Below, piece by piece: positions 5,278 to 61,497 of a stretch of DNA of 64,000 nucleotides. Source of the stretch: Escherichia coli (lineage in GTDB: Bacteria; Pseudomonadota; Gammaproteobacteria; Enterobacterales; Enterobacteriaceae). Position 1 is the stretch's first letter; each line of letters begins with the position of its first letter. The notes beneath the pieces are model-generated. The model searched no databases and had not been told where the DNA came from. It saw only the letters and a list, made by a program, of their open reading frames with translations. The position numbers and the translations under genes were made by a program. Where the stretch lies: NCBI RefSeq assembly GCF_003334785.1, contig NZ_QOWV01000001.1; one strand, given 5' to 3'.

Positions 5278-8973
<3,696 letters not shown>

Positions 8974-51944: not shown

Positions 51945-54041
51945 TTATTGTCCAACCGGTACTTCTCGCTCTGCCGTCATTGGATAGAGCTGGTATTTGC
52001 GTGACAGCATTTGTCCACCATCACGCGTCAATGGTGTCCACGAAACCACCGCGCGGTTGCGGTTAGGTCCAATGGTCATCAAGTCGAATGGAATCGAGAT
52101 ATAAAAACCTTTACTAAAGCCGCCTTCGCCGTAGTCATCTTTAGATACGTTACTGATTGCCGCCCATACCCCTACCGCCACGCCGCTGTCAAAGCGTTTG
52201 GCGACGTCGATCGTTGCGCCTTTATCTTTTGCCAGATATTGCCCAACGCTAAGTTTCATCAGTACGCCATTGAGCGTCGGCGGGTTCCAGTAAGCCGTCA
52301 CGAAACCTGTTGGCGTGGAATAATCGGTGAAACGCATCATGTTGTCCCAGTCACGTTGCTTCACGTAGTTAACGTCCACACCCAGCGCCCAGCAGGCATC
52401 TAGCGGGCGATAAAGCAGCTCGGAACCGACACCGGCGTACATCGTTTCCAGATAACCGCCATACACCTGGCCATAGAAACCATTGCCTAAGTCAGCAAAA
52501 TAGTTCGCCTGCAAGTTGTTGAGATAAACGTCATTGCGAACGTAGTCACGGATATGCGTGCGCACGCGGGGCAGGGTAGAGTCCGCGGGCAACAGCGAAG
52601 ACTTAAACTTGTCGTAGTTGTTGTAAATATTGGTGAAAATACCGCCATCAAGCAGCAGGTGGTCGGTAAACCAGTAGCGGGCACTGGACATCAGCCCCAG
52701 CTGGAACATATAGAAATCTTCCGGGCCGCCCAGCGACTGTGAAAGTGTTGGGTTGAAAGAGTAGCTAAAGCGATCTTCACGAATACGGTAGCCCCGACCA
52801 AAGGCAGAAAGATCTTCAGCTTCAACACGTTGTTGTTGCAGTGGCTCTGATTGACCAGGCGCTGTACCTGCCAGCTGTTTGCGCAGGCTGGCTACGTCGG
52901 TTTCGGTAGTCACCATCGCCATATGCTCGCGCTTTTGCGTCACGCTAATCTTCTCAACGCCTTGCGGCAGGTTATTCACCAGAATCCGGTTGGCACGATC
53001 GACCGCTTCACGAGAGTCACGGTATTTGTATTGCTGACCAGACATATACAGTGTCTTATCGCGTAGCTGAATTTCTGGCGCGTCAAAGCCCGCGTTATAC
53101 TTCAGGGCGGTAAGTTGGTTTGCTACCGTGGTGTACTGCAATCCTTCAGATTCAGGCGCAGGTTGATATGCCGGTTTTGGCGTATCGCGCAGGGCAGGGC
53201 GCAGATCGTTGAAATTGGTCCGTAACGTGAAGCCAAACATCAACGTGTTACCGCGTTCATAACTCAGGTTGAGATCTGCCCAGCTGGCAGCGCGATAAAC
53301 TGCGCCGACGTTGAAATGGCTTGCCTGAGGCAGTTTGCCAGCGAAATCATTCTGGTAATTGTTTCCATCGTATTCGAGTTTCAGACGCAGGGGATTCCAC
53401 GGCGTTTGATACTCAATGCCGCCAAAGATGGAAGCCGGGCCACGAAAGATATCGCTAAAGCTGATATCGCCCGCATCGTGAGACTCTGCGCGATGACAAT
53501 ATTTATCGCTCACCCGGCAAAACGGGTTGGTAATATTGCCCGCATTACCGGCGTAGCCCCATGCCATCCCGAGGGTGAAATCAAATGGCCCCGCTTGCTT
53601 GCTGGCCACCAGATACTCACCGTCAAACAGACCCGTACCAGCAATATCACGTTTACCAAACGCCACTTGCGGTAGCCAGTAACCTTCTTCCCACAGGCGA
53701 AGTTTAAAATCGAATGATTTGTCTTTGTATGACTGATCGCCGCTGAAATCTTCCCACTGGCTATATTTGCGTGTGCGCACATCCGTATAACGAATGGTGC
53801 CTTCCAGCCATGGGAACAGCGCCACGGAGGTGGAGTAGAACCGGTATTGATCGTTATCCCGGTAGTTGACGCTGAATTCACCTTCCGGTGCGATGCGCGC
53901 ATTTGGCATCTGCAACAATCCTGTGCCGCCAAAGTCTGATTGCGACGAACCCAGCGGATCCGGGTAGGTTAATACTTCAGCATGACAGGCACTGGAGACG
54001 GCAATGGCCAGGCAGCTTAAAAGATAAGAATTCTTCTTCAT
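51945..54041 (-). CDS. gfcD: Outer membrane beta-barrel lipoprotein GfcD (YmcA)
   Basis: 698-aa ORF with signal peptide [21 protein letters not shown]. Confidence 0.9.
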
Positions 54042-54787
54042 CAGTCAGGAACACGTTGCGTTAAAACAGACACAATCTGGTCATTTAAATCAGCATATTT
54101 TTCGGGCAGTACATGCGCAGAAAAGCCCAACCAAAGCTGGCTGCCAGGCGGTGGTTCCACATGTCTTTTATTCCACAGGGCAACAGGGGCGACGACAGTC
54201 TCACCCTCAGGCGTAATCACCATAACGTTATTCTTGTCCGCGCCTGCAAGGCGGGGGTGATCTTGCAGATAATCGGTAACGCTACGGCCTGCCTGCCAGG
54301 GCAATTGCCCGGCCCCAGAAACCGCACCCAGCAGAGTAATAGTCACCGGACGCTGTACGGTATAGAGCGTATAGTCCCCGACCAACGGGGGATTGCTGTT
54401 CTCATCCACTCGTACAAAATCAGGGTCCAGTTTGACCGGTAAGCGACCAGTGATATTGAGATTGAGTAACTGCTGGCGCACGGATTTAATCGTTGCCGCC
54501 ACATCGTCGTCAGCTTCTGCTTCCCAGGAAGCAAGCTGTGCCATGACATGTTGGTAGTCTTTAAGCGCTTTAGCTTTCGCCGCAGAGTCGGTCAGCAAGG
54601 CACCAGGCCACCAGAGGCGATCGCGCAGTTGCGGTTGTGTCACCAACTGGACAACATTTTCCACGGGGCCAACGGAAAGTGTCTGTTGTTCGCCAGGCAG
54701 ATAAATAGTCACCGTTCCTTGCGCAAAGGCATGGGGTGTCATTACGTAAAGTACGCTGGCAATGAAATACGACTGTAATTTATTCAT
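54041..54787 (-). CDS. gfcC: Group 4 capsule protein GfcC (YmcB)
   Basis: 248-aa ORF with signal peptide. Confidence 0.9.
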
Positions 54788-55428
54788 GGTGCGGGTTTAA
54801 GAAACGTCATTTCTACGGGAATAACCCCTGCGCCTAACATTTGCCGACTTTGACGAACCTGGCCAGTAGCCGAATCGACCCAGAATGTGTTTTGCCACTG
54901 TTTTTCTGGCCGCGTGGAAGTCACCTCTTCCTGCCAGACATTACACAGCACATTGCGACCCGCAATATTCAGCGTCTCTAATCCAGCAAAGGAAAAAGTA
55001 GAACTCAGGGTCGCAGAGCGAAAATGGTTGTCTTCACTCCAGAGAATATCGCGCGTCCAGCGGCTGCCATCTTTTATTGCCAGCGCGTTACGCAGAGGGT
55101 CCTGCCCGGAATTTGTCACTTCCAGCAGATTATTATTAAGTTTGACGGTTTTTAAAAGACGTCCATTGTGGGTAACCAGCATGGCGTTATCCTGGGATAA
55201 CCATTTGCTTTGTTCTTGTTCTATATATCCCAGTACCACAAAGATTCGTTGCCCTTCATTAAGGCGTAAATACATAGTGGAATAAGGCAACGCCTGGATC
55301 TGCTGATCCGCTACGGTGATATCCTGATTATCGAAAAGGCTGGCGCGAAATGTATCGACCATACTTTGCTGGCTGTGCGTACATCCCGCAAGAAATAGTG
55401 CGAAAATCGATAAAATAAGAGGGCGCAC
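54784..55428 (-). CDS. gfcB: Group 4 capsule lipoprotein GfcB (YmcC)
   Basis: 214-aa ORF with lipoprotein signal (LAGCTHS). Confidence 0.9.
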   Translation of the reverse strand: MRPLILSIFALFLAGCTHSQQSMVDTFRASLFDNQDITVADQQIQALPYSTMYLRLNEGQRIFVVLGYIEQEQSKWLSQDNAMLVTHNGRLLKTVKLNNNLLEVTNSGQDPLRNALAIKDGSRWTRDILWSEDNHFRSATLSSTFSFAGLETLNIAGRNVLCNVWQEEVTSTRPEKQWQNTFWVDSATGQVRQSRQMLGAGVIPVEMTFLKPAP

Positions 55429-55534
55429 CTTTAATCCTTGAAAGGTTAATTAAAAAAATGCAAATCTCTAAAGCCCGGTACGAATATCGCAACCGGGTAT
55501 CATTTAACTTTAATTTCGACGCGTTAAAGCGGTA

Positions 55535-55840
55535 TTAGCGTGTAGTGGACGTGGTGGTTGAGGTGTTATGAGAACCGCCATCGCCACTGTCATTTGCTGC
55601 AACAACTGCCAACGTCGCCACACCAACAGCCGTTGCCACACCGACAACTGTCGCCGTGCCGACAGCGCCAGCAGCCACGCCACCAGTGGTAGTAGCAGTC
55701 GTGGTTGCGCCGGTAGTGGTCGTTGTGGTGCCAGTAGTACCCGTCGTTGCCTCGGTCCCGTTTGTTGCTTCAGGGGCAGCAAACGCAGCTGGCGTCGTCA
55801 ACATGAAGGCCATAAGGATTGCAGAAAGCTTGTGTTTCAT
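55535..55840 (-). CDS. gfcA: Thr-rich inner membrane protein GfcA (YmcD)
   Basis: ORF trimmed to MKHKLSAILMAFMLTTPAAFA, 101 aa; central low-complexity tract TTGTTGTTTTTTGATTTATTTGG. Confidence 0.88.
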   Translation of the reverse strand: MKHKLSAILMAFMLTTPAAFAAPEATNGTEATTGTTGTTTTTTGATTTATTTGGVAAGAVGTATVVGVATAVGVATLAVVAANDSGDGGSHNTSTTTSTTR

Positions 55841-56281
55841 AACTTTTCCTTTATTCATCGCATGGACAATACGTACGCTTGAGATCAGGATTGTCTACTT
55901 TGAGTATAACATCCTTGTGAAATCTCCCTTTCCTCATACCGCTTGCACTATATACTGCGGGTAGGAAAGGCGCGCAGAGGGAAATATAAGATTGTTAACT
56001 ATCCCCCTCTGGAAATACGACTTGTGAGCACAAGATAAATCTTAGCAAAATACAAATTAAAGATAAGGAAATTGTTACGAAAGCTATTAATTATTGTTGG
56101 TAATATAGTTTCAAGTGGTACTATAACTGGCTGTTAAATGGCATTTATAACTATTAGGTGCAGAGATATTCGCTTAAATGGATTAGTTTCTTTGTGGAAA
56201 AGTAACTGATGTTATAATGTATGATGTTGACTATTGCACTATTCCAATAAAACCAGTCAGCTTTAAACAAGCAGCGTCATA

Positions 56282-56494
56282 TTAAGAGAGATAAACATTT
56301 GCCGCTGTTGGTCCTCGCAGGCCATTTACGCGGCAAAATTCCACACGTAATCCTGGTATAAGCACTTCTGCGTCGCGGGGAGTGAATGCGGAAATATGGA
56401 CCTGAACTTCTTTACGACCGTCGGAGGGGATAATGAATCCTTTGCCGCTTTTGCGATCAAAGGTTTTGACAATTCCTGTCATTTTACGGGACAA
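56282..56494 (-). CDS. cspH: Cold-shock-like protein CspH
   Basis: 70-aa [29 protein letters not shown]... Confidence 0.93.
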
Positions 56495-56779
56495 ACAAAT
56501 TCCTTACTGAAAATACTGCGCTGCACTATACGGGGTTAATAAAATAAAGCCAGCGATATTTAAGACCGCCGGACGGCTAAAATAAAATTTGCTTAATCTC
56601 AATTATCATGCGTTAATAGCTGCGTCGGTTTGAAAGACAGACAGCATACAAAGTAGTTTACTAAAGCAGTTCTCATTATCAGGCATTATCCCCTTCTTTT
56701 GAGTCTCTCTCCTGAACACTAAGTAGTTTCTGTATTAAAGCCCTGTTTGCCGAAAGGCCCAAAATGAAGGAAGTAAAAT

Positions 56780-56992
56780 ATGTCTAATAAAATGACTGGT
56801 TTAGTAAAATGGTTTAACGCAGATAAAGGTTTTGGCTTTATCACTCCTGATGATGGCAGCAAAGACGTTTTCGTCCATTTCACCGCCATCCAGAGCAATG
56901 AATTCCGCACGCTGAACGAAAATCAGAAAGTTGAATTTTCTATTGAGCAGGGGCAACGTGGCCCCGCGGCAGCGAACGTTGTTACGCTCTAA
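56780..56992 (+). CDS. cspG: Cold shock protein CspG
   Basis: 70-aa [29 protein letters not shown]... with RNP motifs; about 285 bp upstream leader. Confidence 0.95.
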
Positions 56993-57191
56993 GGTTGCCA
57001 TTATTACTCAACATCTCCATTTCCGCTGTCCATGTTGTCATGGTTCACAGTACCGCACATCGGCATTCGATGTGACGGAGCGAAACCCTTTGGGCGCTAA
57101 GTGTATTTTTTGTAAATCGACGATGATCACCTTTGATAACGTCGCGCTGCAAATACGCACTGACCATGCGCCGCTGGATTTCACAAAATAA
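56931..57191 (+). CDS. ymcF: Small zinc-ribbon-like protein (probable YmcF); start codon uncertain
   Basis: ORF with two CxxC pairs (HFRCPCCHG ... KCIFCKS). The only ATG (56931) lies inside cspG; the real start is probably later and non-canonical. Confidence 0.4.
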
Positions 57192-57396
57192 TATCAGGCT
57201 CCCTCGTGGAGCCTTTTTTATATCTGCCTTATTTTTCTTCAACGCTGTATGTATAGTAAGCGATAACCTGTTGATTATTGAATCTTTCGGGGAGATGGCT
57301 TATAACATTTCTTACCTGACCAGGGTACCGGGAACCAACACCTTACTGGCGTGTTGCTGTCTTTTAAGACCAGAAGAGGTTAACAGTGAATATTGA
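57166..57396 (+). CDS. ymcE: Small membrane protein YmcE (Sfa)
   Basis: ORF 57133..57396 trimmed to [28 protein letters not shown], 76 aa. Confidence 0.8.
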   Translation: MRRWISQNNIRLPRGAFFISALFFFNAVCIVSDNLLIIESFGEMAYNISYLTRVPGTNTLLACCCLLRPEEVNSEY

Positions 57397-57559
57397 AGAG
57401 TTAAAAAAACAAGCCGAAACGGAAATCGCCGACTTTATCGCGCAAAAAATCGCCGAGCTGAACAAGAATACAGGGAAAGAAGTCTCTGAAATTCGCTTCA
57501 CCGCACGAGAAAAAATGACCGGGCTTGAAAGTTATGATGTCAAAATCAAAATAATGTGA
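57386..57559 (+). CDS. gnsA: GnsA (secG null mutant suppressor) small protein
   Basis: GTG-initiated 57-aa ORF MNIEELKKQAETEIADFIAQKIAELNKNTGKEVSEIRFTAREKMTGLESYDVKIKIM; too short for the ORF track. Confidence 0.8.
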   Translation: MNIEELKKQAETEIADFIAQKIAELNKNTGKEVSEIRFTAREKMTGLESYDVKIKIM

Positions 57560-57607
57560 TTTTGTGAACATCACCCCGTGCGAGGTGATGTTCCGCTTGT
57601 TGCTAAT

Positions 57608-58681
57608 TTAGTGACCAATCATTGGCGCTTGTGGAATTAAGCGTCGGTACAATTCCTCCGGCACCGGGCTTTGCCATACTCCCGCATACATTGCGTAACC
57701 AATCACCGCAAACATAATCCCCAGAACCAGTAGCGTCATTAACCAGCCAGACAACGCAAAGGCTTTTTTATTTGCCGCAGGTTTTTGCAGTGAAAAGGTC
57801 AATGTTGAGGCTACCGGACATGACTCTACGCAAGTCATACAGCCGGTACATTCCACTGTTCGTACCTGAATTAATTTATCGACCGGGATCCGTGATGGGC
57901 AATTTTTTGCGCATTTGCCACAGTCGATACAACTTTCGGCATTGCGACGAATCTTAAACGGCGACAATAGCGAAACCACGCCCATCAGCGCGCCATATGG
58001 GCAAAGATAACGACACCAGGCATGGCGAATAAACAGGCTGGCAATCAGCAAAACGGTCACGCTGATTAATGTCGCGGTCCCCATATGACGAAAGAAATCG
58101 AGCATTTTAACGTCCATCACCACGCTGTAGGGCGACAACATAAAATAGTGAATCGCCTGAGCGGGCATCAATAACGCGATATAGATAAAAAAACTCAACA
58201 GCAAATACTTCACGCCGCGCAGAGGAATATCCAGCCAGCGGGGAAGGACACATTGCCGACCAAACAGTTTGTTACCGAGATCGCCGATTAATTCAGAAAG
58301 CGTACCAACCGGGCATAACCATGAGCAAAAGGCCTTTTTGAGTAATAGACTGATGACGATAAAAGCGACCAATAACAGCATCGCGGCGGCGTGGACGGAC
58401 GGTAACTGACCTGTTACAAGGCTATATTTCAGATTCATCAGCCCGGCAATCGGTAGCCAGCCTTCGATACCTCCCGGTCTGGCGACAAATGTCGTGCTAC
58501 TTGCCGTTTCGTAATAGCGCACCCAATACCAGAACGTGATGGCAATATAAATATTCATTGCCAACAGTAATAATTGCGTCGCTTTACGCCAGGTCGTGGC
58601 ATTACGCCAGTCATTCCACGGTAATTTGCCGCCCGTCGTGCCTGGCCGCCGCTGCCAGCGGGTTCTTTTATTCTCTGCCAT
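57608..58681 (-). CDS. yccM: Polyferredoxin-like membrane protein YccM
   Basis: 357-aa ORF with two 4Fe-4S ferredoxin CxxCxxCxxxCP motifs. Confidence 0.9.
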   Translation of the reverse strand: MAENKRTRWQRRPGTTGGKLPWNDWRNATTWRKATQLLLLAMNIYIAITFWYWVRYYETASSTTFVARPGGIEGWLPIAGLMNLKYSLVTGQLPSVHAAAMLLLVAFIVISLLLKKAFCSWLCPVGTLSELIGDLGNKLFGRQCVLPRWLDIPLRGVKYLLLSFFIYIALLMPAQAIHYFMLSPYSVVMDVKMLDFFRHMGTATLISVTVLLIASLFIRHAWCRYLCPYGALMGVVSLLSPFKIRRNAESCIDCGKCAKNCPSRIPVDKLIQVRTVECTGCMTCVESCPVASTLTFSLQKPAANKKAFALSGWLMTLLVLGIMFAVIGYAMYAGVWQSPVPEELYRRLIPQAPMIGH

Positions 58682-58752
58682 GATTTTGCCAGTCCGTTAA
58701 GTTGTATACCAAATGCCACTATTCTAGTTGTTCTTAACTGGCTGATATTGAT

Positions 58753-61497
58753 TCAAATCGCGTTCAGGTCTTTCTTATGCAACCATGCTTCCAGAGCGGC
58801 AACACTGCGTGTAATTTCTTCGTGTGGAAGGGGGGCAGATAATGGCTGCTGCTCCAGTTGTGCGCATAGCTGGCTGGCGATATGCATTCCCAGACTCGAG
58901 CAACTGCTTTTTAGCTGATGCGCGGCACGCTTTATTTTCTCGCTATCCTGACTGGCGCGGGCAATGTCGATTTCATCGAGAAGCGGCAGGGCATGTTGTG
59001 TAAATAATACCAGCCATTCGTGGATCTTCTCCGTCCCCATTAACTGAGCATCTTCATTGAGTTGCGATACATCCAGCGATTGATCATTATTGACTTGCAG
59101 TTGGAGATAGTGCGCCAGTAACTGACCGAGCACTTCACGCGGCACCGGTTTAGGGATAATCCCGCGGAATAATGAACTGGTACGCTGGCGCAGCGTTTCG
59201 TCAATGACATGGGCGCTAAAGCCAATCAAAACCAGCGACGGATATTGCTGTGCCAGTTGTCGGGCAAGCGTAATGCCGTCGATATCCGGCAGATCAAAAT
59301 CCACCAGTGCGGCAGCAAACGGTTCGCTATTTTGCAGTGTCTCTAAAGCCTGCGCGGCATTGCCAACAGCAACAATCTGCGCACCACTGGTTTTCAGCAT
59401 CTCAATGGTAATTCGCTGGGTTAGCGGGTTATCTTCAATTAACAGCAAACGTAAACCGTCAAGACGCACCGCCTGATTGACTGTTTTTGGCACGGGTGCC
59501 GTGGCAACACGTAACGGCAAGCGTAAACAAAAACAGCTTCCAACCTCCGGCGTGCTGGTGGCGCTCAGTTCGCCGCCCATCGCCTGGGCCAGACGGCTAC
59601 TGATAGTCAGTCCCAGCCCGGTGCCGCCGCGTTTGCCGCTTACCTGCACAAATGGCTGGAAGATTTCTGCCAGTTTCGCGGGATCAATACCGCAGCCGCT
59701 GTCTTCCACTTCGACCAGCCATTGCTCGCCATCAGTGCGACTACGCAGGATAATGTACCCTTCGTCAGTAAAACGCAGGGCGTTGCTCAACAGGTTGGTT
59801 ATAACCTGACGAATACGTCGTGGATCGCCCATTAACGCGCACGGCATATCATCGGCAATTGCCGTTGCCAGGCGAATCGGGCGACCTTTCACCCGTCCGC
59901 TCATTAATTGCAGGGTACTTTCCAGCAGCGGGCGCGGTTCAAAGGGCTCATCGCTGACCGAAACATTCTTGCCACCTGCTTCGATAGCGGAATAATCGAG
60001 AATATCGTTGAGGATGGTCAGCAACGATTCACCAGAGTCAGTAATTGCCCGCAAATCATCACGCTGGGCGTTAAGTGCGGGGTTATCTGCCAGCAGTTGA
60101 GCAGTGCCGAGAATACCGTACAGCGGTGTGCGGATCTCATGGCTCATCGCCGCCAGAAACGCCGATTTTGCCTGGCTGGCTTTTTCTGCTTCCGCCCGTG
60201 CCTGTCGGTGTTCTATCACCAGTTCCTGCAATTCAGCTGTACGCGCTTTGACCTGCGCCGCCAGCTGTTCGCGGTGGCGATTCAGTGCATGAACATTGCT
60301 GCGAAACGCATCCATCAGCCGCCCGATGGTATCCAGCTCCCGTACGCCAGCGGTTTCCGGGAAAGGGGAGTCAATATCACCGTCCAGCAGCCGTTGCAGC
60401 GCCTGCGTTTGTTCGGCAAGTGGACGCGTGACTGAGCGATAAACCACGCGCCAGAGGATCAGAATCAGTGCGCAAAGTGAAACCATCCCCAGCAATAACA
60501 GGCTGTATTGCCCGCGTGCACTCGCTTTTTCCAGATGCGCCAGTCCGTGCTGATTACGCAGCTCAATGGTGTCGACCAGCTGACTGACTTCGCTACTAAA
60601 CTGCGCGAACTGGGCGATGTTATTTTGTGCGAGAGTTTGTAGGTGATTGCTGATTTCACTGTCCTGCTGATACAGCGCCAGCAAATCGCTATATTGGCTA
60701 ACGGTAGTTAACGTTGTTGCGACCTGCGCACGAACACCCGGATCTTCAATGCGTATTTGCCGACGTTGCAGAATTTTCACCGCATTATTGAGCTGCTTTT
60801 CCAGCGTTGGTGCATTTTTCTGGATCTGCTCCAGCCCCAGATTCATCACCATTTGCTGCACCCGCAGAGCGCTAAGGCGCAGTTCATTCATCTGGTTAAC
60901 ATACTCAAGATCGATATCAATCAGCCGATCGAGTGCACTTTCAGCAGCCTGACGCTGATCTTGTTCGATCAAATCGTAAATCCCGGCCTGGGTCGCTCCA
61001 GCGGAAGTTGTCGCATTATTCGCCTGACCTTGCGCCAGGCGTGCGATCTCATCGGCGGCAGCGACTATCTGCTGACTGAGTTGCTGTTGTTGCTGGCGCA
61101 GTTGCAAACGCTGCCCCACCAGTTCCCCTTGCTGACGTAACGAACGGGAGATCTCCTGCTCCTGTTGTTCAATAGCGGTGGTATCAAAACCTTGTTCCCG
61201 TAACGCTTGCAGCAACGCATTAATCTTCAGGCTTTGTGCGGTGAGCATTCGCCCCTGCGCCTGCCACATCTTTTCGTTATCGGCACTGGTCAGGTTCTGC
61301 GCGGCGAAAAGTTCCCAGGCGCTGGCTTCGCTCAACTGGCGCGCCATATTCATGGTAGGAATCAATGCCTGAGTGTTGTCTTTTTCCACCTGGCTGATAA
61401 AGCGCAGGTTGTCCCATCCCACCAGGGTACTGGTCAGGGTTAACAGCGCCATCAGGGCAAAGCCCATCCAGAGTCTTCGGGTCAGGGTTAAATTCAC
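58753..61497 (-). CDS. torS: TMAO-responsive hybrid sensor histidine kinase TorS
   Basis: 914-aa ORF with HisKA/HATPase, receiver and HPt domains. Confidence 0.93.

Follow-up and report, generated by a model that had tools for sequence, protein, structure and literature searches.

An empty IS1 target upstream of the gfc capsule operon and a nonsense codon in etk in an Escherichia coli genome

Introduction

In laboratory Escherichia coli K-12, an IS1 copy separates gfcA, the first gene of the group 4 capsule operon (gfc, also ymc), from its upstream neighbour cspH. The 64,000-nucleotide stretch of E. coli DNA analysed here (assembly GCF_003334785.1, contig NZ_QOWV01000001.1; hereafter the window) carries both genes with no such element between them. 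This raises the questions of whether the element was lost or never arrived, and whether an operon with an undisturbed upstream region would still serve capsule formation. The original prediction, made from the letters of the window, held that the capsule promoter is intact and that it is paired with a truncated Etk kinase in the same operon. That IS1 lies in the gfc promoter of K-12, unlike pathogenic strains, is already published, and the polymorphism has been described since 2005. The primary source of the K-12 statement is reportedly Peleg et al. (2005).

Results

The gfcA-cspH intergenic region

The intergenic region spans positions 55841-56281 (minus strand), downstream of cspH and upstream of gfcA, and is 441 bp long. 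Its G+C content is 35.4%, against 50.9% across the whole window. The gfcA gene (ymcD; 55535-55840, minus strand), which encodes a threonine-rich inner membrane protein, was recognized as an open reading frame and is annotated at the same positions in the closest genome, that of the human isolate AST198; its sequence is the same in both genomes. The cspH gene (56282-56494) lies on the same strand and was assigned from its reading frame and from the MG1655 and AST198 annotations.

An IS1-occupied state was defined by a 768-bp element between IS1 inverted repeats of about 23 bp. The IS1 terminal inverted repeat GGTGATGCTGCCAACTTACTGAT had no match anywhere in the 64-kb window with up to three mismatches allowed, and the list of open reading frames held no insA or insB frame within 55841-56281. 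No 12-mer was common to the gap and to IS1D, the MG1655 copy, and a blastn search of IS1D against the window returned chance matches only, the best of them 19 nt long (E=0.04). The predicted AT-rich gap of about 440 bp, free of insA/insB and of IS1 ends, was thus borne out. A search of 55000-57500 against Rfam at a permissive E-value gave no family match inside the gap. Beyond it, a strong match to the cspA thermoregulator (56624-57046; 159 bits, E=5e-43) spans the leader and coding region of cspG and is expected, since cspG is a cold-shock gene. A sub-threshold match to the Salmonella small RNA STnc220 in the ymcF/ymcE region (57149-57229; 34 bits against a gathering score of 60) is probably due to chance or to a distant relative.

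Comparison with K-12 MG1655

The RefSeq annotation of MG1655 (NC_000913.3) places IS1D (insA4/insB4) at 1049778-1050545 between gfcA and cspH, as the original prediction had stated. A spacing of 33 nt separates the 768-bp element from the gfcA start codon downstream of it (at 1049744), and the gap between the two genes is 1,218 bp in MG1655 against 441 bp in the window. The genes and their order (b0987, b4516/b0988 for IS1D, b0989) are otherwise the same. Window positions 46096-55873 aligned to MG1655 1040000-1049777 without gaps and with 4 mismatches, and positions 55865-59319 aligned to 1050546-1054000 in the same way with 2 mismatches. The two sequences therefore differ by 6 SNPs in 13.2 kb around the gfc locus, with a flank identity of 99.95%, and the presence of IS1D in MG1655 is the only structural difference in the aligned region. 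The BLASTN comparison with MG1655 and IS1 that had been proposed as a check accordingly gave ungapped flanks and chance similarity to the element, and the window is, as claimed, not MG1655 verbatim.

The two alignment blocks overlap at window positions 55865-55873, and this overlap defines the 9-bp IS1D target, GACAATACG. In MG1655 the target stands on both sides of IS1D. In the window it is present as a single copy 25-33 nt upstream of the gfcA ATG, with no target-site duplication; the site is therefore a clean, empty, never-occupied one and not a deletion scar.

An assembly artefact, in which the strain carries the element and the assembler skipped it, might be proposed, since short-read assembly copes badly with repeats such as IS copies. 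Assemblers break at repeats, however, and would not splice the flanks to a perfect single copy of the target. Contigs from three independent public sequencing runs also read through the gap; these were compared with the window from among six run assemblies described below, were 99.99-100% identical to it and showed the same uninterrupted 441 bp. We regard an artefact as extremely improbable.

Frequency of the empty site

Population counts were made over 5,426 complete E. coli genomes. The gfcA-cspH intergenic region was found in 3,718 of these and gfcB in 3,703; the operon is probably missing from the roughly 1,700 genomes that have neither. The empty site, scored as unbroken coverage of a 141-nt probe with the target at its centre, occurred in 3,192 of the 5,426 genomes, while a 140-nt probe across the MG1655 gfcA/IS1D junction was covered by 413. 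From these counts, the uninterrupted state is the rule in natural isolates. The best 60 of the 413 junction matches all belong to laboratory K-12 or B strains, the K-12 derivatives among them including MG1655, DH5alpha, C600, J53, DH1 and NCM3722. The emphasis that the original prediction placed on the uninterrupted region was thus right for the window but described the default condition of wild E. coli. The E. coli B derivatives C3029 and C2566 have the IS1D/gfcA junction in common with K-12 at 100% identity, and IS1D must therefore either predate the K-12/B split or have passed between the two laboratory lineages.

Over positions 40000-64000, the window and AST198 differ at 2 of 24,001 bases, 48239 and 59647, neither of which falls in gfcA. 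The first of these changes etk (see below) and the second is a synonymous change in torS. This near-identity assigns the window to a wild, phylogroup-A-like background with a gfc locus very similar to that of K-12. MG1655 is more distant from the window than are many wild isolates, recovered from humans, pigs, food and wastewater. Relative to MG1655, the window also encodes a V121E substitution in Etk (position 49945, codon 121), which is common to AST198.

These comparisons bear on whether the window comes from a K-12 derivative that lost IS1D by precise excision or by engineering, as in an IS-free chassis. Flanks 99.95% identical to those of MG1655 and a junction consisting of exactly one target copy are what precise excision would leave. 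The 6 SNPs, with V121E among them, the closer wild isolates and the occurrence of the empty site in 3,192 genomes all stand against such an origin, which we consider very unlikely. An ancestral empty site in a wild strain is the preferred reading.

The region upstream of gfcA

The gfcA sense strand of the interval was aligned among four strains: the window, enteropathogenic E. coli (EPEC) O127:H6 E2348/69, O157:H7 H2495 and the avian isolate Jnd12. The 441-bp interval has no insertions or deletions relative to E2348/69 or H2495 and a single 1-nt gap in Jnd12. Alignment columns are on average 97% identical, and the approximately 200 nt proximal to gfcA are almost invariant. The comparison with EPEC O127 is one that the original prediction had suggested. 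An uninterrupted upstream region collinear with that of capsule-producing strains is therefore present in the window, and this part of the intact-promoter claim stood. Insofar as "intact" denotes structural collinearity, the activity of the promoter would follow only by extension from these strains.

The Shigella sonnei group 4 capsule operon has been cloned "with its own promoter", and complementation with the clone was successful (PMC4368438). The primer CAGCCAGTTATAGTACCACTTG used for that clone (PMC4368438) matches the window exactly at 56112-56133 on the minus strand, and positions 55841-56133 (minus strand) thus correspond to the upstream part of the clone. By homology, a sufficient functional promoter should lie within 55841-56133. 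A strict scan of 55700-56800 for sigma-70 promoters was negative for the gfcA strand, a terminator scan of the same positions gave none after cspH inside the gap, and the literature consulted yielded no transcription start site. Looser scoring of the gap picked out several promoter candidates, all of them weak, together with two extended -10-like motifs. One such motif found by the pattern scan, TGTTATACT at 55903-55911 (minus strand), is invariant in the four strains and is a candidate core promoter element. A search for repeat pairs found an inverted repeat at 55975-56011 (minus strand) with a 12-nt stem, a 13-nt loop and a central GTTAAC. The predicted fold of an 81-nt RNA segment around it includes this hairpin, at -17.8 kcal/mol. 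The hairpin is nearly invariant across the four strains and is followed by no T-run.

A nonsense codon in etk

Seven co-oriented genes, gfcA-B-C-D-E-etp-etk, lie between cspH and appA in the window and match the annotations of MG1655, AST198 and E2348/69 gene for gene. The reading frames of gfcB, gfcC, gfcD, gfcE and etp (50326-55428, minus strand; annotated from AST198 and MG1655) are all open. The last gene is not intact. Its reading frame (48240-50306, minus strand), aligned with that of MG1655, has 689 codons instead of 726 and ends in a premature TAG at 48237-48239 (minus strand), the result of a G to A change at 48239 on the plus strand that converts CAG to TAG (Q690*). The truncated Etk announced by the original prediction was thus traced to codon 690. 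The nonsense codon removes the last 37 residues of Etk, QAGVNIKGAILNGVIKRASTAYSYGYNYYGYSYSEKE, including a tyrosine-rich tail with seven tyrosines. Residues following position 689 are part of the kinase-domain construct whose crystal structure has been solved (PDB 3CIO). The C-terminal, autophosphorylated tyrosine-rich tail that characterizes bacterial tyrosine kinases of the Etk/Wzc type is consequently absent from the protein encoded in the window.

A 61-nt probe centred on 48239 had no exact match among the 5,426 complete genomes. It matched 2,935 of them at 95-99% identity, and in the rows sampled all but the last two had a single mismatch (98.4%). The exact 689-residue Etk was found, on an identical haplotype, in six public sequencing-run assemblies of the Logan collection, including ERR4899511, SRR3885710 and SRR28811438, and Q690* is therefore not a one-off error.

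All seven gfc genes, etk among them, have been reported as required for capsule in EPEC, and in Shigella flexneri 2a an etk frameshift inactivates the operon (PMC4368438). The tyrosine-rich tail is the substrate of autophosphorylation, and cycling of its phosphorylation is required (PMC3366997). Deletion of the corresponding tail in VpsO of Vibrio cholerae lowers polysaccharide output (PMC7485978). On these grounds, the window most likely represents a lineage without group 4 capsule assembly despite its undisturbed promoter; the operon looks transcribable, and capsule export is probably defective. The same findings weigh against a fully functional operon, in which Etk 1-689 would retain enough function or a paralogue would substitute for it. 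In favour of such an operon, etk is the only one of the seven genes to be damaged, its shortened frame still encodes the Walker-type kinase core that precedes residue 690, and Wzc is a paralogous kinase in E. coli (PMC3366997). Set against the reported requirement for etk in EPEC, its inactivation in S. flexneri 2a and the role of the tail, full function appears unlikely, and an operon impaired at its last gene is the reading adopted here.

Another gene of the window is also disrupted. The usher gene elfC contains a perfect 34-bp tandem duplication (unit CAGCACCAGGCGCAGAGAATACTCGTGTGGCGAA; 7403-7470) that is single-copy in MG1655 and AST198. The duplication shifts the frame and splits the gene into open reading frames of 737 and 170 amino acids, making elfC the second pseudogene in a surface-structure operon of the window.

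Insertions in related genomes

Six wild isolates related closely to the window, with near-identical flanks at the gfc locus, carry insertions or, in one case, a deletion that the window lacks. STO_Bone1B has an IS1 in the orientation opposite to that of K-12 (window-equivalent 55888-55895), ML35 an IS3 (55945-55947), HSP425 an IS2 (55988-55993), E70 an IS1 (56034-56042) and PK6 the IS5-like ISKpn26 (56041-56045). In PSS-13, an IS1B-flanked deletion (48497-56017) runs from within etk into the promoter region and takes most of the operon with it. With the IS1D of K-12 counted, at least six independent insertions fall within 180 bp (55865-56045): IS1 at three sites, IS2, IS3 and an IS5-like element. 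All six lie in the stretch predicted to hold the gfcA promoter. Six other genomes in the comparison are, like PK6, longer by about 1.2 kb overall.

Across the population, 237 of 3,718 genomes have less than 80% of the intergenic region in one piece, a figure that reflects probe coverage and not case-by-case inspection. The ompA-sulA intergenic region was used as a control and was interrupted in 1 of 5,426 genomes; it is under strong constraint and provides a contrast, not a neutral expectation. The AT-rich ssuE-elfA intergenic region was considered as a control for IS density and was dropped, being confounded by sequence replacement in other phylogroups. No paper in the literature library searched combined gfcA, cspH and insertion. 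We suggest tentatively, as a possibility we would not yet favour, that in commensal-type E. coli the approximately 180 bp upstream of gfcA (55865-56045) form a hot spot at which IS elements insert independently. Were this so, the hot spot, together with private mutations such as Q690*, would point to an operon that has repeatedly and convergently been lost, or been rewired by IS elements, and IS1D in K-12 would be one case of a general trend and not a laboratory oddity.

Discussion

We put at roughly nine in ten the probability that 55841-56281 comes from a wild, phylogroup-A-like E. coli and is the regulatory region of its group 4 capsule (gfc/ymc) operon in natural form, never having been interrupted. 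On this reading, the gfcA leader of K-12, and of laboratory B strains, would have received IS1D as a derived, lineage-specific insertion, and the window would preserve the ancestral empty target. Since the layout matches that of EPEC O127:H6 and O157:H7 base for base, gfcA is presumably within reach of transcription that starts at the native promoter. The last gene of the operon carries, however, a lineage-specific nonsense codon that costs the kinase the end of its domain and every tyrosine of the tail, so that the group 4 capsule is most likely absent by a route other than that of K-12. Capsule formation also needs an O-antigen (Wzy-dependent) rfb locus as the source of the polymer, and this locus lies outside the window.

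The empty IS1 site serves as a provenance marker, identifying the window as wild-type-like phylogroup A and not K-12. Assumptions drawn from K-12, such as a silent gfc operon or its IS positions, are therefore not transferable to this sequence. The empty-site state is ordinary, ancestral and already published, and it adds no new mechanism; the sole unusual feature is the lineage-specific nonsense codon in Etk. Two ways of disabling one capsule operon come into view, an insertion in the promoter or leader in K-12 and B and a nonsense codon in the kinase gene in the window. Silencing by IS1 in K-12 is itself an assumption and not proven, because etk-dependent phenotypes occur in K-12 despite the element (PMC2516531). 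Whether IS1 is present may have less effect on expression than has been assumed.

Among known systems, MG1655 agrees with the window in its gfc gene content but has a full-length Etk of 726 residues where the window has Q690*. In EPEC O127:H6 E2348/69, in which the capsule operon was defined, and in enterohaemorrhagic O157:H7, the seven-gene operon adjoins cspH as it does in the window. In the distal intergenic sequence, about 5-7% of positions are substituted between these strains and the window, and both strains have a full-length etk. A further parallel is the operon of S. flexneri 2a, which, like that of the window, is retained with its upstream region and has a kinase gene disrupted by a small mutation (PMC4368438). 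In that case a 14-bp deletion shifts the frame at about codon 47 of etk (PMC4368438), whereas the nonsense codon in the window falls at codon 690 and leaves most of the protein.
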